A DNA stretch of 64,000 nucleotides, taken from positions 32,001 through 96,000 of the IMG/VR virus record IMGVR_UViG_3300005337_000003, one strand, 5' to 3'. The notes under the pieces were generated by a model. It saw only the letters and a program-made list of their open reading frames with translations, did not search any database and was not told the origin of the DNA. Source of the stretch: a virus. This document shows, piece by piece, positions 9,332-64,000 of the stretch (the first letter of the stretch is position 1; every line of letters begins with the position of its first letter). The position numbers and the translations under genes were made by a program.

Positions 9332-9398
9332 TTTTGGAATTGTGTGAGTATTTTACAAAACTAATTAAATAGTATTTCAGTACCAATTCCTATACAAC

Positions 9399-23975: not shown

Positions 23976-23995
23976 TGTGTGTTATACAAAAATAG

Positions 23996-26495: not shown

Positions 26496-26518
26496 TGTTT
26501 AGTTGTGTGTTGTGTCTA

Positions 26519-27808: not shown

Positions 27809-27851
27809 GTTGTGTGTGTTGTGTGTTTATAAAATAAATAATTATAACAAA

Positions 27852-32202: not shown

Positions 32203-32242
32203 GTTGTGTGTGTTGTGTGTTTTAGGTTAATTGTGTGTGATT

Positions 32243-33521: not shown

Positions 33522-36323
33522 TTACTCCTTTTTCTTCTTTTTCTCCTTCTCGATCGCTTTTTTCTTAGCTTCCAGTTCAGAAGCGGTGGTGTTCTCCCTG
33601 GCTATATTTACATCCATTTCTTTCATTTGCAGTTTGGCAGCTATTTCCTCCCGACGCAGATTGGCCTGATCACGTGCCTGCTGTAATCGATTAGTCTCTT
33701 TCTGCCTATCTAAGCCCATAGCTTGGTTAAATTCGGTCTGGTCCTGGATGACCTTAAGGTTGTCTAGGTAATCGTTCTGGGCATTATCATTAAGGTCTAC
33801 TGCGCCGCTATAACCAGCAGCCCGGATCTCTGCTACTATAATATCTTTACGATTCTGACTCTCGATCCACCGGGTCTTCGCATCAAACTCTAACTGCTTC
33901 TCTTTTATCGCTGCCTCATTATTAGCCTTTTCAATCTCTAATTGTCTCTGATGTTGGGCTTCTACCTGTTCCTGCATGCGCTGTTTTATGCCATTCATCA
34001 CATTAGATAATTCCCCTATTGAAGTTGCAGACTCTACATCCACCAAATCAAATATCTCAAAATTAGAAGTGTTATCTGAGCGTATTCTCTGCAATACAGC
34101 GTCAACTACACCTCTGGAATATGAACTTGATTTAGGATAAACGTTGATTTGCCTGAGTTTTAATTCTGATCCATTTATCTGGAAATTTACTTTTTGTCCG
34201 TGGGTGGTTGTGTATTGCAGGCGAACTGAGGGCTTGCTGGAATTATAATGCATTGCCAGGTCCGTCCGCATACCATGTACTCTAGGCATGAGCCAGTCCG
34301 AATGCTGTACAAATATCATTTCAGTCTGGTTATATGAAGCGTTAAGGTTTTCCTCTACGCCTGTAGCTGTCTGGCGGCCTGTTTGCTGCCCCAATCGCTG
34401 AGGATTTAATCCTACCGTAGAAAAAGCCGAAGATAAAAAAAACGCAGCCAATTCCATGCGAGACTTTAGCCTTCCGGTTTGGGAAAGATCTACTGACTGA
34501 AGCTGCGAGTTTGAGGATGCTGCATCTTGTGTATGTTGAAGACGTTTATCAAGAGGCAACATCTGGTAATTACGCATGGTCGCGTAGGCTTTCGAATAAT
34601 TATGCTTTCCCCAGTCATCACCCAAAGATTCAGTAGGCAACAGGTTTGGGTCAAACGCTACTACAGTCCCCAACTCATCCATAAGAATATCGGAAATCTG
34701 GTTGTTGACAACATTGAAATTTATCTGGTAGGGCTCCATCAACTGTACCGGAGGTACAATCCGACCGTTGTAGTCGGAAAAAGTAGCTCCTTCAATAGGA
34801 AGACGAGCGCCGTATAAGGTACTGTCCTGATTAAATTGGTACCTGACAGGGCCAATCTTATTTTGATTAACCCCCAGATATATCGGATTGAAGCCAGTAA
34901 CACCTGCTGGATTAACTGAAGACATGTTATTCCATGTAGGGATATTAGGTCCTATCTTGATAAATCCATATACCTGCGGAATCCAAGTCCAGTCAATATG
35001 TTCACCGAATATCAATGTATCGGGATTCTCAACTGATATAAAAGTTTTGTTATACACTGGCTTATTGGTTATCACGTAACTCTCATCAACAATATCTATT
35101 ACCTGCTCCCCATTTTCCAAGATAGCTGTAAGCTTCCCTACCTTGCGCTGACTTTTCCAATACCCGGTAGTTACTCGGGCCATATAATTGGCTGGATCCT
35201 GAGTAGTATTGACCTGGTTTAATACTTTGTTGACAATACCGCCATCCATAATGTCCACCCCGGCAATACTTCGCTTCATATCCATGGAATAACGATCATT
35301 TTCCTGTATGGTTTTAGATGTGTCGTACAGGGCGTCTTTGTCATAACCAGTTAAAGCATATCGGGTATTAGTGGTAGGATATATGGTCTCCATGCTCTTC
35401 TGCTGGTCTTCGTTCATCAACCACCCGAAATTATCTATAACATCAGGTACAGTTAAGAGAGAAACATTGATAGCTGCATACCCCTCGGAGTAATAATGCT
35501 TATCAGGAGACTTAAATATAGCAGTAAGTACAGGATTCCAGGATTCTACCACATAGTCATCTTCCAACATCCGAAAATGCCAGCACTCTTTATCGAGCTC
35601 AACAGAATATCTAAAATTACGGATCTCCTGCTCCTCCATATTAAAACGATCGATATCTACCTGTGTCTGGTGATCAGCCCACTGTTCAATATTGGAACGG
35701 TAACTTGATTTGAACCAGGTTTGGATCTCGGGCAAAGATTTAGCCTGCTGCATTTGCTCCTGGTAGGCTTGCTGCCCTTCCGGGGAATCTATTGATATAC
35801 CCATATCGGCCAGCTGGGCGTTAACCTTGGCTTCTGCCTCTGAGAGCAACACCTGGAGAACCTCATCACTCTTCATTTGCAGCAATTCATCATTGCTCCG
35901 CTCATCAGTTCCCTGGAACATGAATTCACTACGGCGCTGGGCAAACTCTGCCACAATAGAATTAACAAAAATGGGTGTGATCGGAAAAAACCTTAAAGAA
36001 TCGTATCTTAAATCTTCGTCCGGCTGCATTAATATTTCCAATACATCCTGGTTTTGTGGATTGGTCGTAGGCATATAATCTGCCTTATCGATAACTCCTT
36101 TGGAAAGATTTATATTCTTTAATGCTCTCGGGGCAGTGATAAATATCTGCCTAAGTCCTTGCCATTCCCAATAATCAGCATTATTCTTAGCCCAATCGTC
36201 ATCTTTTTCCTCACGGGGCAGAAATTGGAGGGGGGCTATAAAACTGCCTGTCTGGGTCCTGCCCCCTTTTAATTTTTTGCCCTGGGCTATCTCCGTGGAG
36301 GAGATTACAAGATTACCATCCAT
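33522..36323 (-). CDS. Portal protein, 933 aa
   Basis: Directly downstream of TerL; crAss-like portal features (EKDDDWAK, YWKSQRKVG, long C-terminal coiled coil). Confidence 0.85.
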   Translation of the reverse strand: MDGNLVISSTEIAQGKKLKGGRTQTGSFIAPLQFLPREEKDDDWAKNNADYWEWQGLRQIFITAPRALKNINLSKGVIDKADYMPTTNPQNQDVLEILMQPDEDLRYDSLRFFPITPIFVNSIVAEFAQRRSEFMFQGTDERSNDELLQMKSDEVLQVLLSEAEAKVNAQLADMGISIDSPEGQQAYQEQMQQAKSLPEIQTWFKSSYRSNIEQWADHQTQVDIDRFNMEEQEIRNFRYSVELDKECWHFRMLEDDYVVESWNPVLTAIFKSPDKHYYSEGYAAINVSLLTVPDVIDNFGWLMNEDQQKSMETIYPTTNTRYALTGYDKDALYDTSKTIQENDRYSMDMKRSIAGVDIMDGGIVNKVLNQVNTTQDPANYMARVTTGYWKSQRKVGKLTAILENGEQVIDIVDESYVITNKPVYNKTFISVENPDTLIFGEHIDWTWIPQVYGFIKIGPNIPTWNNMSSVNPAGVTGFNPIYLGVNQNKIGPVRYQFNQDSTLYGARLPIEGATFSDYNGRIVPPVQLMEPYQINFNVVNNQISDILMDELGTVVAFDPNLLPTESLGDDWGKHNYSKAYATMRNYQMLPLDKRLQHTQDAASSNSQLQSVDLSQTGRLKSRMELAAFFLSSAFSTVGLNPQRLGQQTGRQTATGVEENLNASYNQTEMIFVQHSDWLMPRVHGMRTDLAMHYNSSKPSVRLQYTTTHGQKVNFQINGSELKLRQINVYPKSSSYSRGVVDAVLQRIRSDNTSNFEIFDLVDVESATSIGELSNVMNGIKQRMQEQVEAQHQRQLEIEKANNEAAIKEKQLEFDAKTRWIESQNRKDIIVAEIRAAGYSGAVDLNDNAQNDYLDNLKVIQDQTEFNQAMGLDRQKETNRLQQARDQANLRREEIAAKLQMKEMDVNIARENTTASELEAKKKAIEKEKKKKKE

Positions 36324-36347
36324 TGTGTTGTGTGTTATACAAAAATA
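36324..36347 (-). promoter_or_regulatory. Late promoter/leader module TATTTTTG-TATAACACACAACACA-ATG
   Basis: 20 nt (36328-36347) identical to 23975-23994; a similar module at 47981-48014; TATTTTTG fits the TAnnTTTG -7 consensus. Confidence 0.65.
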
Positions 36348-36352
36348 AGTAA

Positions 36353-38566
36353 TTATTTCAGATTCCGGAAGGGTTGTCTCTGTATAGCTCCATCCTCATG
36401 GCTTCTCTGCTTAAAAAACTGCTTGGTAACTACAGGTGGGGGGGCCTTCGTTTTAGGGTTAGTATATATTTTCCTTTTGTTGTAACCATAATTAGCCAGG
36501 TAAATCTTCACATAAGCTACCAAAGCACAATAAGCTATAAGTCGGTCACAGTTGATACCTGGCACATAAGCTTCCGCCTCCTTCATGATCATTATGGATG
36601 GTATCCGGTTTATTCCCCTAAGTACCACCACGTCCACACCTCCCTTATTAACAGTGTGTAGTTCTTCCTTCATGAAGCTGGTGCCATAGTTAATAAGGTG
36701 ATTATCAAACATGCGGTTGGAATTATACCAACCGTAGTCCTGATAAGCATTAGAATTCGCCCCGATCTCAGCCAGAAATAGGATCTGCTTCTTAGGTATA
36801 AGGTATTGCTGGCGGCGTTTACCAATCATATAAGTAATAAACTCTCCAACGTTATTTTCTACAACTGCTTTGGCCCCATACATCTCAAGTATCAACGACG
36901 CCTGCTCAAAAGTCTCGTTAGGATCATCAAATCGGCCCGTCCACTCCAATGCTAGTTTACCAGGATGCACACTGCACTCGGCTGCCTCATCCCCCAGTTT
37001 CCAGACCTCCTCATCCATCCTGTAAACAAGAATACAGAATAATGATTCAGAATGTACGGTCTTGCCTGTCTTTACCGGGTCAATAGAAGCCACATAGGTT
37101 TTTCCGAACTCAAATCCCTCAACTGGCCTTTCATATACTTCCAGGCATCCTTCCTTATCCGGTGCTGTTTTTGATATCGGGTAATCCCTTATAGGCTTTT
37201 TAGCTGCTGTTTCAAACCTGGGCTTACCATCCTCCCCTCTTACAATTTTTAAATACTCAACAGGGAACTCACCATCCTCTATGCGTTGCTTCTGTTTTGC
37301 AATTAACTTCAACGGCCATAAGGATTCCTGGCGATAAGCGAAAGCTTCCCGGATAGAGAGTGGTCGCTGGGAGATATACATCTGGTAATTCTCCGGATCC
37401 CGAAGCTCGGCCAGTTTTCGCCATTTATAAATCTCAGCAAGGGCTTTCTCTTTATTTGAATTACCCCACTCATCATAACACTTAAGTGCTTCTCCCAGTG
37501 TATTGCCTTGTTCATCCTCCTCTACGGAGGTATAATTCCACCATTCCGGAACGAAAAATCCAACCTCAGCGCCAAACTCTGCGTCATCCGGTATATTATT
37601 CTCACAGGGTAGAAACCCGTAAACCGTTGGCTTGGTTACGAACTTCTTGAGTGGGGCAGCTGCAGTCAATTCCCCTACTGCCCCAGATACCATAACCAAA
37701 CCTGTAATCAATCCTCCCATGGCAACGTTGGAAGATATGAACTCCATCGATTTATCTAAGGTGTCATTGGCGCCGGCCTCTTCCGCGTAGATAATAGATG
37801 CATTTCCTCCAATGCCGTTTGTTGGGTCCCTGTGAGTGGTGAATCCTGCGATTATAGAATCATTGCCTTTATATGTGCCGTCGAGCTGTTTTAACCTTTG
37901 TTGCCAGTATATACCTTCTCCGGGATCAAAAGGTCTCCTAAACGCGCAGTGGTTATTAATGTGATTCCTATAACCTTCCATGAATACCCACGCATCTGTG
38001 ACTTTAGATAAATCCTTAGCGAATATTTTACAAACTGCATTGTCTGAAAACCACGCGCGGCACAGAATTATGGCAATGTTTTTAAGCGTATACCCAGATT
38101 GCCGCTTTTTAATCACTGCACTGTACTTACGCTCTATGATGCAGCGGTATATGTATAAAAAATAATGCAGATCTCCGTCCCATATATCTGCAAAATCTGG
38201 TCTGTTTTTTACCTTGTCGGGTATTGGGCAGTAATTGAGGTAAAAATAATAAACACCGGGAACGGCATATTCCAAACCCTCAGACGGCTTTTTATAAATT
38301 ATAAATCCAGAAAAATTACATTTTTCCTTTTCGAAATCCCAGTGTTTTCTGTAGTCCTTAGAGACCGTGCTATATACCGGGTAGGCTTTGGTATTTCTAT
38401 AAATATTAGCTTGCTCATTCCATACTCCTTCTGTATGTTTGAGGTTGTATTCCCCTGGGTATTTATATTTAGTCTTAATGAAGACAAACACATCTTTTCG
38501 AGTCTCGAAATCCGTGTATGACCACTCATTAGTATCTAGATCCAGTGTGGGGGCTCTTAGAAACAT
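36353..38566 (-). CDS. terL: Terminase large subunit, 737 aa
   Basis: Walker A-like VIKKRQSGYT, Walker B IIYAEEAG, nuclease VASIDP and terminal NCDRL. Confidence 0.9.
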   Translation of the reverse strand: MFLRAPTLDLDTNEWSYTDFETRKDVFVFIKTKYKYPGEYNLKHTEGVWNEQANIYRNTKAYPVYSTVSKDYRKHWDFEKEKCNFSGFIIYKKPSEGLEYAVPGVYYFYLNYCPIPDKVKNRPDFADIWDGDLHYFLYIYRCIIERKYSAVIKKRQSGYTLKNIAIILCRAWFSDNAVCKIFAKDLSKVTDAWVFMEGYRNHINNHCAFRRPFDPGEGIYWQQRLKQLDGTYKGNDSIIAGFTTHRDPTNGIGGNASIIYAEEAGANDTLDKSMEFISSNVAMGGLITGLVMVSGAVGELTAAAPLKKFVTKPTVYGFLPCENNIPDDAEFGAEVGFFVPEWWNYTSVEEDEQGNTLGEALKCYDEWGNSNKEKALAEIYKWRKLAELRDPENYQMYISQRPLSIREAFAYRQESLWPLKLIAKQKQRIEDGEFPVEYLKIVRGEDGKPRFETAAKKPIRDYPISKTAPDKEGCLEVYERPVEGFEFGKTYVASIDPVKTGKTVHSESLFCILVYRMDEEVWKLGDEAAECSVHPGKLALEWTGRFDDPNETFEQASLILEMYGAKAVVENNVGEFITYMIGKRRQQYLIPKKQILFLAEIGANSNAYQDYGWYNSNRMFDNHLINYGTSFMKEELHTVNKGGVDVVVLRGINRIPSIMIMKEAEAYVPGINCDRLIAYCALVAYVKIYLANYGYNKRKIYTNPKTKAPPPVVTKQFFKQRSHEDGAIQRQPFRNLK

Positions 38567-38589
38567 TTAGTGTGTTGTGTGTCTAAATT

Positions 38590-47980: not shown

Positions 47981-48067
47981 GTTGTGTGTTTTTTTTGTGT
48001 GTAGTACAAAAATAACACAATTTGCTCCCATAAAGTAAAAAAGGCTAATAAATTTGTTAAAAAGGTA

Positions 48068-54628: not shown

Positions 54629-54958
54629 TCAAGATTTTACTAACGCGTATTCCATGGCCTCATTAAAAGAACAGCCACCATTGTAATATGTAAGCACGTA
54701 ATCAATTGAGCCATCATCTTGTCTAAAAGCCTGGAAAACATCTCCGCCTTCGCCATACCGCTTATTTTCCGTTCGGTATAATACATCATTGTAAAGAATG
54801 TATTCCCGGTAGCCATCCTGTAACAGGCATTCCAGGAAATTGTTGTTGTATTCGTTCTTTACACCTTTGAGTATCCTCTTGGCATAGTCCTCATTTGTTT
54901 CACCTTCAAGAAGCTGAACTGGAATTAATTTCCCAATATTGGTTTCTGTTTCTGACAT
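54629..54958 (-). CDS. Hypothetical protein, 109 aa
   Basis: Clean ORF; YYNGGCSFNEA motif seen in other phage hypotheticals. Confidence 0.65.
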   Translation of the reverse strand: MSETETNIGKLIPVQLLEGETNEDYAKRILKGVKNEYNNNFLECLLQDGYREYILYNDVLYRTENKRYGEGGDVFQAFRQDDGSIDYVLTYYNGGCSFNEAMEYALVKS

Positions 54959-55094
54959 AGTTTTTAAGTTATTGAATAAAAAACACTAGCAGCTTCCCTA
55001 CTTAGATATTTCAGTTCAGAAATTAGCCAAATTCCTGCTGTAAACTCACCTAGGTTATTACAGCTATTTGGTTACCGCCCAGTGTAAAGGTCAA

Positions 55095-55289
55095 GGTCTT
55101 TGGCAGAGTTTGATACCTGCATGACAACCCGATATTTATTTCGCCATAGGCCTCCTCCGAAAAGGTGTGTTCAGGTCGGGAATTTCATAACTAAGCAGTC
55201 ATTCGGTGTTCCATATTAAGGCCACATTACCTAATGCTTAATCAATTATTGTCTTATTAAATTAGCGTCTATTCTTCCGCCACAAAGAC
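55095..55289 (-). ncRNA. tRNA-like RNA with a large insertion (195 nt)
   Basis: Acceptor GUCUUUG/CAAAGAC (7/7), Leu-like D arm UG-GCG-GAAGAAUAGA-CGC, T arm GCAGG-UAUCAAAC-UCUGC; about 140 nt between the D and T arms instead of about 30; no CCA. Confidence 0.6.
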
Positions 55290-55405
55290 ATTTGACCAAT
55301 ATTTCAAAAGAACGTAAGCAGCGGTGACCATTCACCGGGGGCGCCAAACGAGATCGGCTTATCCCCTACGTCCTGTATTCGCCCAGGACTGCTGCCATTT
55401 CAATT

Positions 55406-56209
55406 TTAATTCATCCGCTGATTAACAACAGTCTCGTCGGATGCCTCCGGTCCCCAGGCGGTTTCCACCAGATAATACTTCTCGCCATTATAACACACCG
55501 GATGCAGAACAATAGGATCGTCGTCAATAATCTGGTGGCCTTTCACTGCCTTACGTTCCATATTAAAATACTTAACAGGGGCAACAATTTCTCTGGAGAC
55601 TTTAATTACTTTTTCTACCCAACGCACACCATACCCCCCATGCCCTCGGTATTGTTTTTCGCAGGAGATAAAGTCCTTATATGTAATTAGTTTAGAATCA
55701 ATAATAGTCCTTCCCATACTTGTTTTCATTTCTAATGCATAACATTCATCCTCCGGATTGATCTTAAACGCTTCCATTTCCTTGAGGTTCTTTTCCGGGA
55801 TCTCACCGATAAAATCACTTACCGTTCCCAGTACCAATCCATATTTATCACATATATCCTTAACGGCATCCGCTGTAATAAATTTATATTGCGGATAAGT
55901 TCTGGAAAAGAATTCCAATGCGGTTCTTTGTTTTTCATAGAATGATAACTTTCGGTTCAACTGGAAAGCCCGTGTAACCTCCTTTGAACTTGTAAACCCT
56001 AAGGCTTCTAATCGTTTAGATTTTTCCGTGATTTCGGCGTGGCTACATTTCAAATCTGATATAGTGGATGTAGCGGCCTGGAGGACCAGACTACCTGCGC
56101 TGTTGAATTCACGATGTACCTCCTCCACCAGCTCCTGCTGGCTTTTGCCTTGGGACGCTGAGTACCTCGACTCTGTATCCGCTTTTTTGTTCCAGTTAAA
56201 TAACCTCAT
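55406..56209 (-). CDS. Hypothetical protein, ~267 aa
   Basis: ATG 56209 preferred to TTG 56236; C-terminal DDPIVL...YYLVETAWGPEASD motif. Confidence 0.65.
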   Translation of the reverse strand: MRLFNWNKKADTESRYSASQGKSQQELVEEVHREFNSAGSLVLQAATSTISDLKCSHAEITEKSKRLEALGFTSSKEVTRAFQLNRKLSFYEKQRTALEFFSRTYPQYKFITADAVKDICDKYGLVLGTVSDFIGEIPEKNLKEMEAFKINPEDECYALEMKTSMGRTIIDSKLITYKDFISCEKQYRGHGGYGVRWVEKVIKVSREIVAPVKYFNMERKAVKGHQIIDDDPIVLHPVCYNGEKYYLVETAWGPEASDETVVNQRMN

Positions 56210-56241
56210 GACACAAATATAAGCACAGAATTGCAAATATG

Positions 56242-56277
56242 CAAATTTATTTTGTGGTAATTTTTTTATTATATTTG
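56242..56277. promoter_or_regulatory. Back-to-back Bacteroidota -7 elements
   Basis: TAAATTTG on minus (56249-56242) and TATATTTG on plus (56270-56277). Confidence 0.55.
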
Positions 56278-56300
56278 ATCAAACCAAAACACAAAAATAA

Positions 56301-56456
56301 ATGGCAAAACATCCTGGCTTCAAAGCCGTACAAAACAAGATCGCCAGCAAGGAAGGTATCAGCAAGAAAGCAGCTGGTGCGATCCTGGCAACATCCACCC
56401 GCAAGGCTAGTCCGGCGGCAAAGAAAAAGAATCCTAACCTGAAAAAGGTTAAGTGA
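56301..56456 (+). CDS. Small highly basic protein, 51 aa (not in track)
   Basis: MAKHPGFKAVQNKIASKEGISKKAAGAILATSTRKASPAAKKKNPNLKKVK; own -7 box, A/C-rich leader and terminator. Confidence 0.75.
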   Translation: MAKHPGFKAVQNKIASKEGISKKAAGAILATSTRKASPAAKKKNPNLKKVK

Positions 56457-56474
56457 TCAATCACTAAAAAAAGA

Positions 56475-56499
56475 AAGGCCCAGCGATAAACTGGGCCTT
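56475..56499. terminator. Bidirectional terminator between convergent genes
   Basis: AAGGCCCAG/CTGGGCCTT 9-bp stem. Confidence 0.75.
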
Positions 56500-56520
56500 A
56501 ATTATTTAAGAATACCTATG

Positions 56521-56736
56521 CTACTCTAGGTGGCAATCACTAATGCTGTAGTCTGCATTTCCCGGATCATTCCGGGACTCACACTTGGTCTTCGCATCGG
56601 ACTTGGTGGACTCCGAAATAATGGAGCCTGATGAGTTTGCCCTGCCATAGGTAGTTACGGTACAGCGGCAAGTGTAATCCTTCTTGCAGCCAAATGCGAT
56701 CACTATGAGCGCAAACATTAAAACTGATTTCTTCAT
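56521..56736 (-). CDS. Small lipoprotein, 71 aa
   Basis: MKKSVLMFALIVIAFG|CKKDYTCRC: lipobox plus the KKD/E start typical of Bacteroidota surface lipoproteins; four further Cys. Confidence 0.75.
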   Translation of the reverse strand: MKKSVLMFALIVIAFGCKKDYTCRCTVTTYGRANSSGSIISESTKSDAKTKCESRNDPGNADYSISDCHLE

Positions 56737-56795
56737 GGTTATTGTTTTTTTATAGTTCCATGTTGCAAATATGCAAAAAGAGATCCAGATAAACA

Positions 56796-56876
56796 AATAA
56801 AAAACCCGGCACTGGTTTGTGCCGGGCGCCCGCCTAACAGAAGGAGATGCTGACGGGAGGTTATCTTAACAAGAGA
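56796..56876 (-). ncRNA. Candidate ~80-nt sRNA
   Basis: Promoter TTTG (56913-10), 20-nt spacer, TATATTTG (56889-82); no ATG; hairpin 56829-56857 with loop UCUCCUUC; terminator CCCGGCAC/GUGCCGGG plus U run. Confidence 0.55.
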
Positions 56877-56953
56877 TGCCTCAAATATATAAACAATAAT
56901 CCAGGTATACAAACACCGGCAATTAATTCTCCGAAGTTATGTCGGAAGATGGT

Positions 56954-57190
56954 TTAGTATTTACGCATGGGCGCACTGTCCTCCTGGAGGACCTTGAATA
57001 GCCGGCTCATGATATCGTCCATGTCTGATACTGATGGCATGGGATACCGGGACTGCAGCTTCAGGAGCCTCTCTGGCTCCTCACCTGACAGGTGATTATT
57101 GACTTTGATTGCTATGAAGAACCGGTTCAGCTCGTCCATGAGAGCCTGGTTCTTATAAATCCGTAATTCTTTTCGTGATCTTCTTTCCAT
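56954..57190 (-). CDS. Hypothetical protein, 78 aa
   Basis: Last minus-strand gene before the strand switch. Confidence 0.5.
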   Translation of the reverse strand: MERRSRKELRIYKNQALMDELNRFFIAIKVNNHLSGEEPERLLKLQSRYPMPSVSDMDDIMSRLFKVLQEDSAPMRKY

Positions 57191-57305
57191 ACCTGTTATT
57201 ATGCAAACAGGTTACACTGATCCGGGATAACCTCCAGATGGTTTAAAGGGAGATTTCCTATCCTCAAAAGGGAAGGAGGACTGTAAAATCCCTCCTTTAA
57301 AAACC

Positions 57306-57461
57306 ATGACAAAGTATGTCGTAAAGAACGGACAGTGCTATAAGCTACTGTTCAGGAAAACCGTTCGCCACTACCTGACCAAGAGGTTAATAACCTCAAG
57401 GAAAGGGAAGGTGATGGTCGTACCTGTCCAGGTAGACTGTTCCTTCTGTGGTTGCTGTTAA
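57306..57461 (+). CDS. Small basic protein with Cys-rich tail, 51 aa (not in track)
   Basis: MTKYVVKNGQCYKLLFRKTVRHYLTKRLITSRKGKVMVVPVQVDCSFCGCC; TTAAAAACC leader. Confidence 0.45.
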   Translation: MTKYVVKNGQCYKLLFRKTVRHYLTKRLITSRKGKVMVVPVQVDCSFCGCC

Positions 57462-58347
57462 TAACAGCTTCCATCTGGATTAGGATGAGGTGGAGCTTAC
57501 ACCCCACCTACTTTTCTTTCCGGTGGTCGCGCACGTATATAGTTACCCTCAAGGACGGTCTCATTAGCTGACAAATCTCCAGTTAGCGCTGGGTGTCTGA
57601 GATGTGAGGTAGAAGCTCACAACCGCTCTTCTTGTTAAAGTGATTGTTACCAAGGTGGGGTTTAAGTAGTCATTCCCTTAATGTGTCCACTGAGGTTCAA
57701 TCCGCCCCAATCAGGTCATATGTTAACTGGTCGGGAATTAAAGCCGCACATGGCGGCTTCAAAAATATTGTTCTTTCGTTGCGCTCTGACGGCATCATTA
57801 TAGTCCGGGAGCGGCCGACCAGCGTTAGAACATAAAGGGCTCGTTAGGAAACTCGACCGGTATTTCCAACCGGATGGTGGGAACCTAGCTGGGCTCTTTT
57901 TCATTTACGAATGTACGGACAAATTCTCATCCAACCAAAAATATATGGTGCCGTGGTGTTTAGATGCCGTGTCACGCGCGGTGCCGCTCATGGGTCCCCC
58001 AATCTACCCCGCCACCCAATCTCTCCGCTGGGCCCCACCCGGGGGGGTTCCAATCTCTCAAATTCCATCTATTAGGGCGATTTTCTAAAACCGGATTTTT
58101 TATGACAAAGATCAGCCCACCAGCTCGTCTCCAGGAACAACAACGGCCAACCAGAGCTGACCTGGCGGCTGGCAGACGATGCCAGGCCGTCTCGAATACC
58201 TGGGGAGACAAGGAATGCTAAAACAGCTAAAAGCCACGATAGCACCCCTTAGCCCCCTTATCGCACACCCGGCGCCGCTCAATCTCTCGCATCCATTGTC
58301 TTAGCAATCAATCATATACAATATTTAACTTCTTAAAACCACAACAA

Positions 58348-58614
58348 ATGAATCACTTTAAAAGAGAAACAGTCACCGGTCTTACCGGCTGCCGCATCCG
58401 CCAGCAGTACAAGCTACTCTGGATTAAGATGCTGCATAACAAAAGGCGCACATGTAGCGTCTATCCGCTCACCCGGGATAACAGGGTGCCCGAGGAAATA
58501 CTGGAAGAGAGCCGGTTCGTCCCAGGGTTATTCAAGAACAAGGCAACAAAGGAGAGGTTTAAGCTGGTGCAGGGCAAAGACAAATACACCAACCTGATAC
58601 CATGTACAGCGTGA
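58348..58614 (+). CDS. Hypothetical early protein, 88 aa
   Basis: AAAACCACAACAA leader. Confidence 0.6.
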   Translation: MNHFKRETVTGLTGCRIRQQYKLLWIKMLHNKRRTCSVYPLTRDNRVPEEILEESRFVPGLFKNKATKERFKLVQGKDKYTNLIPCTA

Positions 58615-58815
58615 TCGCCTTCATCCTGGGGCTGGGAAGAGTTATAATAAGGCCGGCGTCGAAAGACCACGGCTTTTATTATAGCCCCTCCCACAGCTCC
58701 CGCATCAAGGCCAAGCGACTGGCATTGCGTTAACCGCGCCCCCTTATCCCTCCCTATTCTGCCTATTCTCTCTCATTCATTATCCTAATCAATTAACAAT
58801 TAAAAACAAAAGAAC

Positions 58816-59160
58816 ATGAGCACATTAAAACTCACATCAGATGGCTCCTACTACAAGCGTAGCTCAGGAGTAGACGGCCTGACCACTGCCAAGCAGGTAT
58901 TCCGTTACAACGTTACCGGGGACGAAAAAGACATCGTTGAATACATTGCCGAGCGCGTGAAGGGCGGCGCCAAGGAAACATCGATAAAGACAGAGACCGG
59001 CGTTAAGTACTATACCGATCGCTTTGTTCCAAACGGCACCAGCCTGGACAAAACCCAGGATGGCCGGTTCTTTCCCAACACTGCCAAATGGGATCAGATC
59101 CTGAGCCTGCAGAAACAGGGCCACTCCTACGAGGCTGCCGTGGCAATGGTGTCGGCATAA
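58816..59160 (+). CDS. Hypothetical early protein, 114 aa
   Basis: Strong A-rich leader; high-expression-like codon usage. Confidence 0.7.
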   Translation: MSTLKLTSDGSYYKRSSGVDGLTTAKQVFRYNVTGDEKDIVEYIAERVKGGAKETSIKTETGVKYYTDRFVPNGTSLDKTQDGRFFPNTAKWDQILSLQKQGHSYEAAVAMVSA

Positions 59161-59184
59161 GAATTGCACTGTATTTAAAAAAGC

Positions 59185-59312
59185 TAGGCCGGGAGACTTG
59201 TGCTCCCGGCATTTCACATCAAAAAAGCTCAGTTGTGTGGAGCAAAGTGGCCTGTCCTTTGTGTGGAGGCTGGCCGGCCCCTGGGAGTTGTGTCCCGGGG
59301 GCTTTTCTATTT
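59185..59312 (+). ncRNA. Candidate sRNA with four UUGUG-loop hairpins, the last being a terminator
   Basis: Loops ACUUGUG (59196-202), AGUUGUGUG (59231-39), UUUGUGU (59258-64), GUUGUG (59287-92); G-U pairs and the U tail favour the plus strand. Confidence 0.65.
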
Positions 59313-59316
59313 CACT

Positions 59317-59374
59317 GGGGAGTAGGGGTCAACCGGATCGTATACCGGGCGCTGTTCGAGTCAGCGACTCTCCA
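59317..59374 (+). ncRNA. Anticodon-less tRNA-like element (58 nt)
   Basis: Acceptor GGGGAGU/ACUCUCC-A, perfect T arm CGCUG-UUCGAGU-CAGCG, and only 26 nt between them (a single arm). Confidence 0.65.
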
Positions 59375-59463
59375 CTAAACGAGGCGACAAGCCCACAACA
59401 TAACCACGGGACGGATCAGCTCCAGATAAGCAGCTGGTGGACACGTCTCCTTAACAATAAAAT

Positions 59464-59550
59464 GGAGAGCTGGATGCATGTTGGGCTGTCCGCATGGTGG
59501 CTTTGGGTTGCCACTCTTTTCTCCGGGTTCGATTCCCGGGCTCTCCACCA
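59464..59550 (+). tRNA. Atypical tRNA (87 nt) with an 8-nt anticodon loop (UUUGGGUU; Pro-like UGG plus one nt) and encoded CCA
   Basis: Acceptor GGAGAGC/GCUCUCC-A-CCA; T arm CCGGG-UUCGAUU-CCCGG; anticodon stem GUGGC/GCCAC; D stem AUGC/GCAU with a 14-nt loop. Isotype uncertain. Confidence 0.7.
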
Positions 59551-59793
59551 GCAACACATTGCGCCTCGACAAGCACCGACGGGTGTTTCGTTGGTCAGAC
59601 GTGGTAGCCTTCAATAAGCTACTGATGTCCGTAAAATGGGAAAAAGCACCACATGGATACAGGGGTCCCAACGATAGAGGATGTAATTTACCAGCACCGA
59701 ACGCTAATACCAAAACGGGCGTCGAGTACTATCGGAAGATAGTCGCTGGCTTATTTTGCCAATAACTTTTATTAATTTTAAAAATTGACAGAC

Positions 59794-60012
59794 ATGGAAC
59801 CCAGAGAAATAACACTTACCGGCACGATCCATATCGCACACTTCAGGTTCTATGATGGCCTGCATTATGTAAAGGACAAGCCTTTGAAACAAACCACCCA
59901 GTGGGAGGAACTGGACGGCGGCACAGGATATATGGTGGCCTGTGGCGATGTGATGGTGCGGGTGCCTGAAGACTATTGCCCGCACATCAAAAGAAGAATA
60001 ATAACCATTTAA
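59794..60012 (+). CDS. Hypothetical early protein, ~72 aa
   Basis: ATG 59794 in frame with the track's TTG start. Confidence 0.55.
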   Translation: MEPREITLTGTIHIAHFRFYDGLHYVKDKPLKQTTQWEELDGGTGYMVACGDVMVRVPEDYCPHIKRRIITI

Positions 60013-60025
60013 AAACCAAAAAAAC

Positions 60026-60448
60026 ATGACAACACACGAGATTATTGATGACACGGTTGCCTTTTACGGCGCCGATCCGGTGGGCCGGAGATCCCTGAAA
60101 CTGACAGAGACAGAAGAGCACGATTTAGTTCAAAATGCTTGTTTATACATAGGACCTGGTGGGAAAAAATGTGCATTCGCAAGGTTTGTAAAGGAAGAAG
60201 ATTTATACGAATTACGACAACGAGAGGGAACGTGTGCAGGATTTGTACTAGAATCAGTTACGCTGGAAGACAAGGTATCAAAAATCAAAAACAAAATGTT
60301 CTGGAATAGTGTACAGGCCATTCACGACCAGAGTTCTCATTGGGATGAAAATGGCATAACAGACCAGGGCATCGAGTTTGTCCAAGAGCTAAAGGATAAA
60401 TATCCCAACGTGGAAGAACTTGCTGATAGGCGAGAAGAAGCCGGCTAA
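60026..60448 (+). CDS. Hypothetical early protein, 140 aa
   Basis: CLY...KKCAF...Q.IHD...W pattern; followed by a terminator. Confidence 0.7.
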   Translation: MTTHEIIDDTVAFYGADPVGRRSLKLTETEEHDLVQNACLYIGPGGKKCAFARFVKEEDLYELRQREGTCAGFVLESVTLEDKVSKIKNKMFWNSVQAIHDQSSHWDENGITDQGIEFVQELKDKYPNVEELADRREEAG

Positions 60449-60462
60449 AAACCGGCTTTTTT
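60438..60462 (+). terminator. Intrinsic terminator
   Basis: AAGCCGG/CCGGCUU stem plus U run. Confidence 0.75.
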
Positions 60463-61161
60463 TAACAAATAGGACGAAACACCGTATCCATTGAGTGAAG
60501 CTATAAGATTACCCGCATTTTACCATACTTTTTAGGCGTTTGGCTGAGTAAAGCGTCGTATGAATTGCCACAATTCAGATCTTTTCCGCCTTTATACCTG
60601 GTACCAGGCAACCTTTTAGCCTCCAGATCGGCACGTTTTCCGCCTTAAAGCCTGTCTGTTCAGGCATCAAGCCTCCAGATAAAACTTTTTTCGGCTCTGT
60701 TCCGCGTCCCTCTAAGGCTACAGGCTCATTTTTGGCCTTTTTTAGGGGCAAATAGAGCGCATATTTGGCTTCCAGCTGTGCTGTGGGCCGGTTTATTTAA
60801 TTCTGGCGCCATTAGCTGGCTTTTCGGTGTAAGTTATTGAGAATTAAGGAGATGAGTTGGGGTTTGGTCTTGAATTTTGCGGCCCGCCCCCACTTCATTT
60901 CAACTGCGGCCTACCGGGCGGCTCTTATAGCGGCCCATCCGTAAATACTTTCTACTGTTCTTGGAGGTGGGATCAGGTATAATATCAAATAATAGTATTC
61001 TTCCATAGTTGAGAGTGTAACCTGACAATATCAATATACGTATAAGCAGCATTAGGAAGATGATCCTGGGGCTTTGTGGGATGCTATGGCCTGTAAACCG
61101 GCCAATTCCCGCTGTTTCACCAGCATTCGCCATACCTAACCACCAGCCACCTGTTAAATTT

Positions 61162-61192
61162 TTTGCGAGTATATCAAGCCGTACTATATTTG
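61162..61192 (+). promoter_or_regulatory. Bacteroidota housekeeping-sigma promoter
   Basis: TTTG (61162-65), 19-nt spacer, TATATTTG (61185-92). Confidence 0.75.
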
Positions 61193-61499
61193 CACGGGGA
61201 TTGCCTTTATCTTAAAAGACTAAATATGAAAAAAATATCCACACTTACCGCCATAGCGGCCATGATGGAGGCTGCTGTCTTTTAACAAAGGAAGATAATG
61301 AAGACATTAGCTTTATCAAAAATGCCAAGCTGCTAGCAGAAGGCTGAGTAGATCTAAGGGCGCGGCCTTTTTGCGAATCCAGCGGCATAACCTCCAATCT
61401 GCAGCTCATAACTCATGAAGTAAAAGATTGCACTAAATTTCAACCTAAAGAATAAAAAGCATATTCAGATTTTACTACCCTCCAATAAAAAAATTAAAT

Positions 61500-61985
61500 A
61501 TGACACCAAGAATCCAAAAAGCAATTGACATTTTCCTCGACGCTATAAATGAGAGAACATTAACCAAAGGCAACTGCGCAGCATGTGCAGTTGGTAATTT
61601 AGTGGCGACTGGAATGAACATAAAATTAAGACCCTATACGCTCTGCGAAAATTCAAACAGCGATTGGGGCAATCTATTTTATACTGACGAGACAGGCTGC
61701 CAGGTATACCGCAAAGATCTATTAAGCCCCACAGCATTAAAAAAGGCCATGGATAATATAGAGGCAACCGATTTCACAGAAACAGAGTTAATGCGCATTG
61801 AACATGCATTTGAGACCAATACCAAAATTAGACATGAAAGCTACTATCGTTATCAAAAAGAACAAATACGCCAAGATCAAATAAAGGGCCTTGCAGCGGT
61901 AGTAGAAGTAATGCTCGAAATGGACAATTGCACAGAAAACACAAAAGAAGTATTTACCAAAAAAGCAGAGCTTATACCTATTTAA
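61500..61985 (+). CDS. Hypothetical early protein, 161 aa
   Basis: GNCAACAVGNL...W...F...IEHAFE...GLAAVVEVM; related in pattern to 63021..63449. Confidence 0.7.
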   Translation: MTPRIQKAIDIFLDAINERTLTKGNCAACAVGNLVATGMNIKLRPYTLCENSNSDWGNLFYTDETGCQVYRKDLLSPTALKKAMDNIEATDFTETELMRIEHAFETNTKIRHESYYRYQKEQIRQDQIKGLAAVVEVMLEMDNCTENTKEVFTKKAELIPI

Positions 61986-61987
61986 TC

Positions 61988-62398
61988 ATGGAAAATAACT
62001 TAAAAAAACTAATCGAGACCTATCAATGCCCTGGATGCATGATGGGAAATAGGATAGAATGCTTTAAGCCTGCGGAATATGGAAAGCAATGCGCTGCACA
62101 TCGTCCGGGCACATTTATATCTTCGATAGGTAAAATACTTCTTGGAATGCCAAAAGGCTTTGACCGGACAAATGATAGCCTGGGCGAATCCAAATACGAT
62201 CTGAAGATCCTGGAAGCGCCAGAGTACGATAAGTTCAATGTTGCTGTTTGGAAGCATCTCGACGGGCATGGCAATACACTAGTAAGGGGCCTAATGCCTC
62301 GGCTAAATCAACCTTTTGTACATATCTACGAAGGAGACCAACGGGATAAAATAAGCTGCCTGGAGATCACACAGGAAGACATTAACGAGATGGACTAA
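61988..62398 (+). CDS. Hypothetical early protein, ~136 aa
   Basis: ATG 61988 directly after the upstream stop; CPGC...C...C..H motif. Confidence 0.65.
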   Translation: MENNLKKLIETYQCPGCMMGNRIECFKPAEYGKQCAAHRPGTFISSIGKILLGMPKGFDRTNDSLGESKYDLKILEAPEYDKFNVAVWKHLDGHGNTLVRGLMPRLNQPFVHIYEGDQRDKISCLEITQEDINEMD

Positions 62399-62408
62399 AG
62401 ATACCGCA

Positions 62409-62536
62409 TGGCCCCTATAAGCCGCGCGATTAAATGGACTGGTGGCGTTTTGATCTGTCTGCCGCCAGTAGCTTGCAGGACAGATTCGGACGGGGCCAAT
62501 AGGTGAGAGAAGGGGAAGGTTAATAGCCTTCCCTTT
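62409..62536 (+). ncRNA. Candidate pseudoknotted RNA plus terminator
   Basis: P1 UGGCCCC/GGGGCCA; hairpin ACUGGUGGC/GCCGCCAGU whose loop AUCUGUC pairs with GACAGAU (62479-85); terminator GGGAAGG/CCUUCCC-UUU. Confidence 0.45.
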
Positions 62537-63020
62537 ATAAAGTTCTTTGAAGATAAACGGCTAAACATTGATCCATTGTAAATCGCTGCAAATAGGCGTT
62601 TAGATTGTACTTATTGGAGGTAAACCAATTAAAAATACCCCATATAGGACAGTAGTTTACATAAAGATACTAATCCTGAATTGACAGGATGATGAACCGG
62701 AGGATTTACCATACACTATATATCTTAACAGACTAGAGTGTTCTTAAGTGGAGTAGATCGCCGTAGTAGTTGCTGTAAAGCTAGATGTGTTGTTCCCTTG
62801 AGAAAGGAATCGATGACCAAAGCTATTAGAGCAGTGAATAAGAGAGTAAGGGACAAAGGTAGCTCTACAACACAAATGAGACTCAGCAAGTAGTTAGTTA
62901 CATTCCTAGTCTTAATTGATAGAGTGTGTAATACGATGGCTTAACATTAGCTTCTAACTATGTGACCCTACTCTTTCAGCAGACAAGAGGGTGCTAAACA
63001 AACTAATAACAAAACTTAAC

Positions 63021-63449
63021 ATGAGAATGAGAAAAGAAAAAATCCTTGAAGACCTTGCTATCGAAGAGGCAAAGAACTTAAAAAACCTTGCAAAACCTGA
63101 AGAGATTAACAATTTAAATCCAGCATCATTTGATCCTACTGACCCTGCGAGGTGCATATACGGACAGATGACCGGGAGTTGTTGGTCGGATCGTGCAAAT
63201 GAACTGATCATCAAATGCTGCACCAAAGTAACACATTGGATAGATGTAGATGTTTTTAGCTATGAAATAAACGGCAAAGCGACAAACAAAAGGCACGGCC
63301 CCAAAGAAGCAGATGAAACTTCCGAGTATTATTCTCCCATCGAAACTTTGATATTCGAGGAAGACGTATATGATTTCGAGGATACATTCTACTCCAAGCG
63401 GATCATGGCTTTTCTAAAAGACGAAACAAAGGAATTATCATTCGACTGA
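63021..63449 (+). CDS. Hypothetical early protein, ~142 aa
   Basis: CIYGQMTGSC...YYSPIE motif; ATG 63021 preferred. Confidence 0.7.
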   Translation: MRMRKEKILEDLAIEEAKNLKNLAKPEEINNLNPASFDPTDPARCIYGQMTGSCWSDRANELIIKCCTKVTHWIDVDVFSYEINGKATNKRHGPKEADETSEYYSPIETLIFEEDVYDFEDTFYSKRIMAFLKDETKELSFD

Positions 63450-63502
63450 TACTGATATAGTATGCCGCTGGCCGGGATGCGCCCGGTTAAAAAAAATAAA
63501 AC

Positions 63503-63667
63503 ATGAAAAACATTAAGATCCTGGGATTCTTTTTAATAGGAATAGCACTTAACCTATTAGCTGTATCAATTATATATGTGGACATAATACAACCTATGAT
63601 AGCCGGTTTCTGTATTTTTGAAGCTTATATCTGTATTATTCATCCAGAAAAAATAACCAAAGAATGA
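63503..63667 (+). CDS. Small membrane protein, 54 aa (not in track)
   Basis: MKNIKILGFFLIGIALNLLAVSIIYVDIIQPMIAGFCIFEAYICIIHPEKITKE; A-rich leader. Confidence 0.5.
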   Translation: MKNIKILGFFLIGIALNLLAVSIIYVDIIQPMIAGFCIFEAYICIIHPEKITKE

Positions 63668-63762
63668 ACACTTTATCTTTTAGCATAAATCTAATAACAG
63701 TATGCATGTATACAACATCGCTTGTATTGTGCATTTTTACATTAATTAAAAACTGGAAATAA

Positions 63763-64000
63763 ATGGGAGCAAGAGCACAAGTACACATGGAAGAAAGTGG
63801 TGTATATCTTTATACGCATTGGGGATCTGGAACATTGAAAAAGGATGTAGCAAGGGCCTTAAAAAAGAAATGGCGCTGGGACGACGTGGAATACCTCACA
63901 CGAATAATATTCGACGAAATGGTGGGAAAGGAGCAGGGCGAAGAAACTGGCTACGGTATCGGGACAAATGTAGCAGGAGATGCTGAATACATTATACACA
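63763..64000 (+). CDS. Conserved phage hypothetical protein, partial (runs off the right edge)
   Basis: MGARAQV...VYLYTHWG...RWDDVEYLTRIIFDEM...TGYGIG. Confidence 0.7.
   Translation, partial: MGARAQVHMEESGVYLYTHWGSGTLKKDVARALKKKWRWDDVEYLTRIIFDEMVGKEQGEETGYGIGTNVAGDAEYIIH

Follow-up and report, generated by a model that had tools for sequence, protein, structure and literature searches.

The question raised by this locus is what four small hairpins, lying in a non-coding gap of a phage genome and presenting the same word in their loops, have to do with the leaders of the late structural genes, in which the complement of that word is found. A first-pass annotation had proposed that the hairpins form a phage-encoded multivalent RNA that regulates late translation, and had named an adapter and a sponge as variants.

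The window analysed here is a stretch of 64,000 nucleotides (bases 32001-96000) of a 129,798-bp IMG/VR virus record, which carries direct terminal repeats. Judged by its sequence, the phage is crAss-like in the broad sense. A 540-aa protein encoded at 30580-32202 on the minus strand matches the Pfam family Crass_capsid (E 5e-19) and was taken as the major capsid protein (MCP), and PHROGs names the portal (33522-36323) and the large terminase (TerL, 36353-38566). Every gene from position 2 to about 56,800 is on the minus strand, and a plus-strand block begins at about 57,300. The cultured phage that is nearest by MCP is a Leptolyngbya phage with merely 26% identity, so that the host is not proven. 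Several sequence features point to a host from the Bacteroidota. The leaders of the phage genes lack a Shine-Dalgarno (SD) sequence and are A-rich and G-poor; TAHHTTTG boxes are enriched between genes, with 28 of 82 falling in the non-coding 14% of the genome; and the box-plus-spacer TTTGTATAA is also found 5' of late genes in Cellulophaga phage phi14:2, whose middle and late genes are transcribed by the host polymerase (bioRxiv 10.1101/2020.03.07.982082). The cumulative GC-skew minimum of the whole genome falls at 59130. We did not accept it as proving an origin: across 6 kb, between 56.4 and 62 kb, the curve is level and follows the orientation of the genes, which makes the position of the minimum imprecise.

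Hairpins in the gap past the strand switch

The gap at 59161-59313 follows a 114-aa orphan gene (58816-59160, plus strand) and precedes a tRNA-like element that starts at 59317. The features of this region are as follows.

59161-59187, plus strand: 3' untranslated stretch after the 114-aa gene, with an A7 tract and AAAAAAGCU just 5' of H1
59188-59210, plus strand: hairpin H1, 8-bp stem (7 GC), loop ACUUGUG, -17.7 kcal/mol, z -3.9
59211-59221, plus strand: UUUCACAUCAA, an internal CACA word
59227-59243, plus strand: hairpin H2, 4 bp (GCUC/GAGC), 9-nt loop AGUUGUGUG, -4.4 kcal/mol
59249-59275, plus strand: hairpin H3, a moderate hairpin with an interrupted stem, loop region UUUGUGU, -11.1 kcal/mol, z -1.8
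59276-59303 (with tail to 59313), plus strand: hairpin H4, 11 bp (8 GC), loop GUUGUG, tail UUUUCUAUUU, -23.7 kcal/mol, z -3.3
59317-59374, plus strand: tRNA-like element of 58 nt, starting 4 nt past the U-tail of H4
59464-59550, plus strand: atypical tRNA of 87 nt, an ARAGORN default call

The four consecutive UUGUG-loop hairpins of the first-pass annotation were recovered, one of them (H2) with a stem of only 4 bp. TTGTG starts at 59198, 59233, 59259 and 59288, that is, four copies in 95 nt, each in a hairpin loop. The plus strand of the 129.8-kb genome holds 118 copies of TTGTG, and the hairpins described here are the sole cluster of four copies within 120 nt. By a permissive 3-bp definition, 23 of the 118 copies (19%) lie in loops genome-wide, compared with four of four in the cluster. 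The loops of the genome's other 30-odd strong hairpins are unrelated to UUGUG. Folded as a whole, the 128-nt element reaches a z of -3.5 (plus strand) or -3.7 (minus strand). These sequence facts, the hairpins and the motif statistics alike, are confirmed and are not due to chance.

The individual hairpins differ considerably, H1 and H4 being the strong ones. H4 had been described as a 10-bp GC stem with a U tail; the U tail stood, while the stem proved to be 11 bp with 8 GC pairs. H4 has seven U in the next 10 nt, lies 3' of a plus-strand gene and was called by the terminator scan, and it is probably a plus-strand intrinsic terminator that sets the 3' end of an RNA. H1 was flagged as terminator-like on the minus strand; on the plus strand it has the stem of a terminator only and is followed by AUUUCACAUC. 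Neither H2 nor H3 qualifies as an intrinsic terminator. The fold of H2 is no better than that of shuffled sequences, of which 36 out of 200 fold as well, and in the minimum-energy fold of 59185-59312 its stem is not formed and its loop is paired with UUUCACAUCAA. Among the four loops, H2 provides the sole 8/8 complement of CACACAAC, the late-leader word described below, and is the best candidate for a seed. In H3, the UUGUG is partly held in weak U.G pairs, and opening it costs only 0.7 kcal/mol.

The four loops do not look like four independent events. An exact 10-mer, TTGTGTGGAG, is common to H2 and H3 (repeat family D3, 26-nt spacing), and H1 and H4 both carry GGGAG..TTGTG..TCCCGG, so H1/H4 and H2/H3 appear to be internal duplicates. 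The word AAAAAAGCU is likewise repeated, standing 5' of H1 and 5' of H2 (59219-59227), as are AUUUCAC flanks. The loop words have been retained while the stems differ between H1/H4 and H2/H3, and judged from the sequence, selection on the loop fits this pattern better than neutral drift after duplication.

The gap was confirmed as non-coding. None of the ORFs overlapping it belongs to a PHROG family, and an antisense ORF at 58864-59217 (minus strand) was discarded because its translation is not protein-like; had it been a gene, H2 would have been a genuine late leader. The 114-aa neighbour gave no match as a query in IMG/VR or in a set of 5.8 billion proteins, hence its orphan status, and its predicted model (pLDDT 42) was uninformative and unusable. 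The 140-aa downstream gene gave no match as a query, and the neighbour genes have no Pfam or PHROG family. No host-type promoter box (TAHHTTTG) was found upstream of the hairpins at 58700-59190. The layout is thus that of a 3'UTR-derived sRNA, with a stop codon at 59158-59160, a terminator at 59276-59313 and no TAHHTTTG box of its own.

The hairpins open a 621-nt stretch (about 59.2-59.8 kb) that folds with a z of -3.6 and has the highest intergenic GC content of the genome (0.53). By analogy with phi14:2, this stretch is probably an early and highly expressed RNA cassette, of which the hairpins would be the first module. The strand-switch region is packed with structured, tRNA-like RNAs. ARAGORN at its default settings called no tRNA or tmRNA over the hairpins and reported only 59464-59550; solely with a lowered threshold was H4 forced into a 91-nt "tRNA" and a permuted "tmRNA". 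In Rfam, no tRNA or tmRNA match above 15 bits was found over the hairpins, and no family matches the whole element. The sole CrcZ match in the region (59989-60064; 18 bits versus 95) was discarded as a spurious A-rich match. In the spacer between the two tRNA-like elements, the plus strand carries CACAAC at 59394-59399 (within CCACAACA, 59393-59400), a possible in-cis partner for the hairpin loops.

The strand from which the hairpins are read decides what they could do. Nine of the ten copies of GTTGTGTG are on the plus strand, and at the DNA level the motif has the same orientation in the late leaders and in the hairpin loops. Since the late genes are on the minus strand, the loops are complementary to the leaders only if the hairpins are read from the plus strand. 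Plus-strand transcription appears likely from the sequence context, as that strand carries the upstream gene, the downstream tRNA-like genes and the H4 terminator, and no host-type promoter box for the minus strand lies within 3.5 kb to the right of the hairpins. T-tracts follow H1 and H2 on the minus strand, which leaves transcription of that strand possible. Read from the minus strand, the RNA would expose CACAAC in its loops and would serve as a decoy instead of pairing as an antisense RNA. To a factor that binds DNA, the leaders and the hairpin cluster would present an identical site.

The late-gene leader word and its predicted pairing with the loops

The leaders that carry the complement of the loop word are listed below.

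32203-32219, minus strand: MCP leader, CACACAAC-A-CACACAAC abutting the ATG at 32202
27809-27825, minus strand: leader of the 429-aa gene, the identical double CACACAAC, ATG at 27808
36327-36347, minus strand: portal promoter and leader, TATTTTTG-TATAA-CACACAAC-ACA-ATG
38574-38581, minus strand: TerL leader, CACACAAC 7 nt 5' of the ATG at 38566
47981-48014, minus strand: leader of the gene starting at 47980, promoter box TATTTTTG and then CACACAAAAAAAACACACAAC, ATG at 47980
23974-23994, minus strand: leader of the 88-aa gene starting at 23975, TATTTTTG-TATAA-CACACA-ATG, leader of about 7 nt
9340-9347, minus strand: leader of the 1021-aa gene starting at 9331, CACACAAU, downstream of TAGTTTTG

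The earlier claim that the complement lies near the starts of late genes therefore holds for MCP, the 429-aa gene, portal, TerL and the genes starting at 23975, 47980 and 9331. The word CACACAAC came out independently as the top late-leader word. The genome contains ten copies of it, nine in the minus-strand sense. Eight of these are at 27809-27816, 27818-27825, 32203-32210, 32212-32219, 36327-36334, 38574-38581, 47981-47988 and 26502-26509, and the ninth is the complement of the H2 loop. In 30-nt leaders the word was observed six times against 0.14 expected from leader shuffles, and none of 2000 shuffles reached six. The 5-mer CACAA alone is weakly enriched in the same 30-nt leaders (18 versus 9.9) and precedes early genes too. 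The chance of the shared loop 5-mer falling inside the complement of the 9-mer was estimated at about 4 in 1024.

The motif occupies positions -17 to -1 of MCP, the 429-aa gene, portal and TerL, and in the gene starting at 23975, CACACAAU overlaps the ATG. A double CACAAC also stands just 3' of the stop codon of the 429-aa gene. The leader word is often found 3' of a Bacteroidota-type TAnnTTTG-TATAA promoter box; at portal, 23975 and 47980, TATTTTTG is followed by five bases (TATAA or TACTA) and then by the leader word. In Flavobacterium, transcription starts 4-5 nt past the -7 box (PMC6847099). With this spacing, (A)CACACAAC is expected to be the 5' end of the portal, 23975 and 47980 messages, whose leaders would measure only about 7-30 nt. 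The MCP copies occupy a 40-nt intercistronic gap that has no promoter box, which suggests that the word also works at the RNA level. The initiation signal of Flavobacterium consists of A-rich, unstructured start regions (PMC6847099). About 80 relatives (51-53% MCP identity) have G-free MCP leaders of the AACAAAUAAA type in the same place and lack CACACAAC. This suggests that CACACAAC is this lineage's version of an unstructured, A/C-only leader for ribosome loading.

The pairing between loops and leaders was predicted with a scan for contiguous helices that charges opening energies to both partners and covers 136 start regions (-30 to +15). Eight of the nine best-scoring start regions (n = 136) belong to late minus-strand genes, with energies of -6.1 to -8.1 kcal/mol, compared with a mean of -2.5 kcal/mol (sd 1.9) over all genes. 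These eight are the 429-aa gene, MCP, portal, the 401-aa gene, the 1021-aa gene, TerL and the genes starting at 26441 and 23975. The loops cost 0-2 kcal/mol to open and the leaders are unstructured. A plain duplexfold run that ignores accessibility was meaningless here, as 55 of the 136 start regions reached -8 kcal/mol or better through the GC stems.

The 8/8 pairing that had been noted between a loop and the MCP leader was reproduced, between GUUGUGUG of H2 and CACACAAC. The net energy of this 8-bp helix is -8.2 kcal/mol, with an opening cost of 1.5 kcal/mol. H4 forms 6 bp (net about -5.4 kcal/mol), H3 forms 6 bp (net about -4 kcal/mol), and H1 forms 5 bp only (net about -2 kcal/mol), so that "multivalent" was an overstatement. 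The energies of the late targets (-6 to -8 kcal/mol) are modest and depend on H2 and H3. When the letters were permuted within each loop, the observed eight late genes were reached in three of 100 controls (p about 0.03), and permuted loops still placed a mean of 2.6 and a maximum of eight late genes at -6 kcal/mol or better. That three controls match indicates that much of the signal stems from composition, with U/G loops facing C/A leaders. The late-gene specificity of the loop complementarity is real but modest. The part of the first-pass proposal that concerned late genes thus stands as a late-gene-specific complementarity, tempered by the permuted controls, while the adapter and sponge variants gained no support of their own.

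Searches among relatives did not turn up a second example. The MCP alone as a query gave no match; an MCP-alignment search gave 80 IMG/VR and 80 JGI loci, all with at most 53% identity, and a protein search found closer MCP relatives (P0002-P0004) with 62-71% identity, one of which is on a 115.7-kb contig. The nearest IMG/VR and JGI relatives (at most 53% MCP identity) have neither a CACACAAC leader nor a comparable hairpin cluster. Five complete relatives showed no DNA match to 59160-59800, and in three whole relatives (G001, G002 and G004) no cluster of at least four hairpins with the same loop word was found. A DNA scan with the late promoter-leader word returned 18 unrelated single matches only, a scan with the anticodon arm of the atypical tRNA two chance matches only, and a search of metagenomes for the tRNA-like-domain pattern none. 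A three-loop pattern scan returned 106 matches, essentially all of them TG-rich tandem repeats, and no GC-stem hairpin cluster.

Known systems and rival explanations

Several known RNAs resemble the element in part. The c4 antisense RNA of P1/P7 (Rfam RF01695), reportedly described by Citron and Schuster in 1990, is also a small structured RNA that is encoded by a phage and sets exposed loop words against the ribosome-loading region of phage messages. The match of GUUGUGUG to CACACAAC is of this c4 type, a likeness in mechanism only. In addition, c4 is released from a longer transcript beside an RNase P-type site, and here a tRNA-like element begins 4 nt past the U-tail. However, c4 governs immunity, and its target is the single operon that directly follows it on the same transcript, whereas the candidate targets here are at least six late structural genes, located 11-50 kb away on the opposite strand and carrying an SD-less CA leader. 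A search for RF01695 found nothing at the gathering score, nothing with E up to 10 on 59000-59900 and nothing with E up to 1 on 54900-63800. The staphylococcal Rsa-type sRNAs (RsaE and others), which are said to carry UCCC loop motifs according to Geissmann et al. in 2009, share with the element several loops that present the same short word, complementary to the generic ribosome-binding signal of the targets. They are host-encoded, with C-rich loops against the Shine-Dalgarno GGGA, whereas the element is phage-encoded, with U/G loops against an A/C leader that lacks SD pairing. The element would be akin in mechanism to this "anti-ribosome-site loop" kind of c4 and Rsa, by analogy, and falls in no Rfam family.

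A precedent from the putative host phylum is GibS of Bacteroides thetaiotaomicron, which represses SD-less messages by base pairing at the start region and does so without Hfq (PMC7366714). The seed of GibS is a long single-stranded 5' region of 30-50 nt and not a short loop word; GibS itself is a chromosomal metabolic regulator whose sequence is unrelated to the phage element. In the related cultured crAss-like phage phi14:2, an ORF-free stretch gives rise to an abundant non-coding RNA from the earliest time point, the function of which is unknown (bioRxiv 10.1101/2020.03.07.982082). The late minus block of phi14:2 ends at about 98.0 kb, plus genes begin at 98.1 kb and the ORF-free stretch is at 2905-4601. 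The two phages are thus alike in having an ORF-free plus-strand stretch with tRNA- or tmRNA-like elements a few kb past the strand switch, at the start of the early block. However, the stretch in phi14:2 holds a tmRNA and no UUGUG-loop cluster, it has no sequence similarity to the hairpin element, and the late genes of phi14:2 begin directly after the TTTGTATAA box without a CACACAAC leader.

Four other explanations have to be weighed against an antisense RNA. The hairpins may be ordinary structural RNA, namely terminators, stabilisers or processing signals that end the 114-aa message and lie in the 5' leader of the tRNA-like cassette, multiplied by local duplication. The leader match would then be a by-product of U/G-rich loops meeting a C/A-rich leader that is kept deliberately unstructured as a surrogate for ribosome binding. 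This explanation is possible and leans towards the doubtful. H4 is a textbook terminator, and H1 with its A/T tract looks bidirectional; the shared GGGAG..TTGTG..TCCCGG of H1/H4, the exact 10-mer of H2/H3 and the repeated AAAAAAGCU and AUUUCAC flanks are what local duplication would leave. Permuted U/G loops often "target" late leaders anyway, G-free A/C leaders of the AACAAAUAAA type are general in the family, and A-rich, unstructured start regions are the very initiation signal in Flavobacterium (PMC6847099). However, the exact match of GUUGUGUG to CACACAAC exceeds what composition gives (three of 100 controls), the cluster is unique in the genome with loops retained on diverging stems, and four hairpins exceed the needs of termination. 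A further candidate, which we regard as very improbable, is a single RNA cassette of about 600 nt (59161-59790) that includes both tRNA-like elements and in which the loops pair in cis with UUUCACAUCAA and CCACAACA for folding or processing. The stability and GC content of the 621-nt stretch, the plus-strand CACAAC at 59394 and the cis pairing of the H2 loop in the minimum-energy fold all suit such a cassette, but four loops would have to share one or two cis partners, the hairpins are divided from the remainder by the H4 terminator, and no Rfam family matches.

Binding of a protein to the cluster was also considered. In CsrB/RsmZ- and CrcZ-type sponges, one short loop word is repeated on successive stem-loops. 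A phage or host protein could similarly bind the (G)UUGUG loops, or a minus-strand RNA with CACAAC loops could serve as a decoy for a factor that acts on the late leaders. The element shares with CrcZ and CsrB a repeated short word exposed on the successive stem-loops of one small RNA, kept on varied stems every 26-35 nt or so; the minus-strand fold is equally stable (z -3.7) and has U-tracts after H2' and H1', and the orientation of the motif in the DNA is the same in loops and leaders. Even so, this array is improbable. Unlike the sponges, a plus-strand RNA bears the complement of the leader word and not the word itself; CrcZ-type CA motifs are absent from it, as its words are U/G, and would be present on a minus-strand RNA, for which no promoter box exists within 3.5 kb to the right and on which none of the flanking genes, all plus, is found. 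GGA loops as in CsrB/RsmZ are lacking (ACUUGUG, AGUUGUGUG, UUUGUGU, GUUGUG), and Rfam gave no match. No candidate RNA-binding protein was found, as the neighbours have no Pfam or PHROG family and the 114-aa model is unusable. To our knowledge, CsrA is absent from Bacteroidota, and neither CsrA nor Hfq/Crc is known there. Hfq and ProQ are reported absent from Bacteroidota (PMC7366714). A site in the DNA is quite improbable as well. Here GTTGTG/CACAAC would be bound by a phage regulator at the late promoters, with a four-site operator or sink at the hairpins, or the cluster would be an origin-associated repeat or priming signal. In its favour, the plus strand has nine of the ten GTTGTGTG copies, the predicted transcription start of portal, 23975 and 47980, where repressors usually bind, coincides with the beginning of the word, the GC-skew minimum (59130) is 55 nt from H1, and TGTGGAGCA in H2 agrees by eye at seven of nine positions with what we take to be the consensus of the DnaA box, read in reverse. 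However, the minimum is imprecise on a skew curve that is level between 56.4 and 62 kb and follows the orientation of the genes, the MCP copy in its promoter-box-free 40-nt gap speaks for the RNA level, a double-stranded site leaves unexplained why all copies are in loops, and the copies, spaced 35, 26 and 29 bp apart, show no helical phasing.

A putative early brake on late translation

The match between loops and leaders suggests, from the sequence, an RNA that acts as a brake on the synthesis of late proteins. A functional link between loop word and leader word appears to us slightly more probable than not. Given such a link, pairing between two RNAs is the most natural interpretation, as it accounts for the presence of every copy in a loop. 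Its specific form, an early antisense RNA of the 3'UTR type that occludes the leaders and dampens late translation, is a reasonable possibility that falls short of likely. The first early transcription unit on the plus strand past the strand switch would finish in a structured segment of about 130-150 nt, which is the element. This segment would start after the stop codon of the orphan gene 58816-59160, and its 3' end would be set by the H4 terminator or else by RNase P cleavage before the tRNA-like element at 59317. Its U/G-only loop words would be antisense to the A/C-only (A)CACACAAC, with the best fit in H2 (GUUGUGUG) and H3 (UUGUGUGG) and a lesser one in H4 (GUUGUG). The word (A)CACACAAC would be the first bases, or all, of the very short SD-less leaders on the most heavily expressed late genes. 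Pairing at -17 to -1 would block the 30S subunit, and the RNA would act by stoichiometric antisense occlusion of the ribosome landing site. Made early, it would silence leaky late messages until late transcription outruns it, which amounts to a threshold switch. Plus-strand transcription, the accumulation of a discrete RNA, pairing in vivo and the direction of the effect are what we infer.

Several points weigh against the antisense reading, among them the loop-permuted control with a p of only about 0.03, the apparent internal duplication of the hairpins and the lack of a promoter box upstream of them. Only H2 has a seed of the usual length, yet it is a marginal hairpin whose loop can be sequestered in cis by UUUCACAUCAA. 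A net energy of -5 to -8 kcal/mol is weak for a host group that lacks Hfq. Late in infection, MCP mRNA would likely far outnumber any sRNA. A more daring version can be drawn as well. GGAG flanks every loop (GGAGG in H3), and it is possible that the RNA bridges the leaders to the normally sequestered anti-SD of Bacteroidota and so acts as an SD supplied in trans.

The locus touches on two open questions, namely the timing of late gene expression in crAss-like phages and the choice of messages for translation in Bacteroidota, which do so without Shine-Dalgarno pairing. Whether or not the pairing is real, an exact A/C word of 8-9 nt stands between a host-type promoter box and the ATG of the most expressed genes, and the strand-switch region is full of structured, tRNA-like RNAs. 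The broadest claim, an early multi-loop "anti-leader" RNA that gates a whole class of virion genes in a non-SD phylum through CACACAAC as the replacement of the SD, is tentative and rather on the unlikely side. If true, it would be a class-wide translational switch of a kind not described for any lytic phage, and a 2025 review (PMC12197685) contains no class-wide translational RNA switch of a lytic phage. Should the pairing be real, CACACAAC would be a portable and strong SD-independent leader, and one small early RNA would control the start regions of the capsid, portal, terminase and other virion genes together.

Late promoter box and leader word

A late promoter box, TA(T/A)(T/A)TTTG-TATAA, is common to this phage and the cultured crAss-like Cellulophaga phage phi14:2 (NC_021806). 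Here it stands at the portal gene (36335-36347), at the 88-aa gene whose ATG lies at 23975 (23982-23994) and at the gene starting at 47980 (48002-48014); in phi14:2 (sequence L315) it is present at g070, g092 and g093. The late genes of phi14:2 have their ATG immediately after the box or no more than 2 nt away, and the messages are thus nearly leaderless. Unlike phi14:2, this phage has CACACAA(C) inserted between the late promoter box and the ATG. On the minus strand, the 429-aa gene is closely followed by a further double CACAAC (26502-26515), which sits between its stop codon and a terminator hairpin, so 5' leaders are not the only place where the word occurs.

The start codon of the MCP is in question between 32170 and 32202, where the recorded gene call (P0001) gives a protein of 529 aa. 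Since relatives of 540-543 aa align across the entire 540-aa open reading frame, the longer predicted product is preferable to the recorded call. Its start, at 32202, comes immediately after the leader word.

Hairpins and the tRNA-like elements 3' of them

In all four UUGUG hairpins (H1-H4), GGAG adjoins the loop word (59191-59195, 59239-59242, 59265-59269 and 59283-59287). GGGAG precedes UUGUG in H1 and H4, while H2 and H3 carry UUGUGUGGAG, with GGAGG in H3. These words are Shine-Dalgarno-like and occur in a phage with G-free leaders of its own. When the genome was scanned for hairpins that have a loop word in common, an array of up to nine short repeat units dominated the output. This array lies outside the window, at 105528-105681 of the whole phage record (G000:C1), and its words include TTACC and GCAAC.

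Two tRNA-like elements lie 3' of the hairpins:

59317-59374, tRNA-like mini-helix of 58 nt; stem GGGGAGU/ACUCUCC with G3.U70, without CCA
59464-59550, atypical tRNA of 87 nt; acceptor stem and T arm perfect, CCA present

The mini-helix also carries an 8-nt loop on a CCGG stem, and its T-loop reads UUCGAGU. The tRNA is unusual in its anticodon loop of 8 nt (UUUGGGUU) and its D loop of 14 nt; the Gln(UUG) assignment by ARAGORN is forced, and the Rfam tRNA model gave no match to 59464-59550, even at E values up to 10. Its 3' end, UCCACCAGC, is complementary to GCUGGUGGA (59433-59441). Because the 5' strand of the mini-helix, GGGGAGU, has an alternative partner in GCUCUCC (59540-59546), a word found just 5' of ACCA, all 234 nt of 59317-59550 could be read as a single tmRNA-like unit. 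Rfam detected no tmRNA in this interval.

Strand-switch region

The genome-wide cumulative GC skew reaches its minimum at 59130 (genome position 91130), 55 nt upstream of H1. This is at most a hint of a replication origin in the strand-switch region, as the curve is flat between 56.4 and 62 kb. The following features were found on the minus strand:

56804-56889 (a span that also takes in the terminator listed next), 57760-57767 and 57936-57943, minus strand, sites of host-type TAHHTTTG boxes; the boxes fall within 56830-57960, which is poor in ORFs
56804-56827, minus strand, strong terminator
56521-56737, minus strand, small gene, the first of the minus-strand block; product begins MKKSVLMFALIVIAFGC

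The boxes and the terminator suggest that non-coding minus-strand RNAs may be made upstream of the late block. The MKKSVLMFALIVIAFGC start of the small product looks like a lipoprotein signal.

Early non-coding regions in relatives

The ORF-free early region of phi14:2 is reported to yield abundant non-coding RNA (bioRxiv 10.1101/2020.03.07.982082). This region contains a tmRNA (L314:4031-4502; called by ARAGORN at 4031-4500), which scores 46 bits against Rfam RF00023 (gathering score 47; E 3.6e-16). An IMG/VR relative (G002; MCP identity 51%) has a plus-strand ORF-free stretch at about 13970-15260, which holds an overlong tRNA-Lys (92 nt) and another T-arm-like fragment. Early-region tRNA-like cassettes, without the UUGUG hairpins, therefore seem to be a trait of the family.
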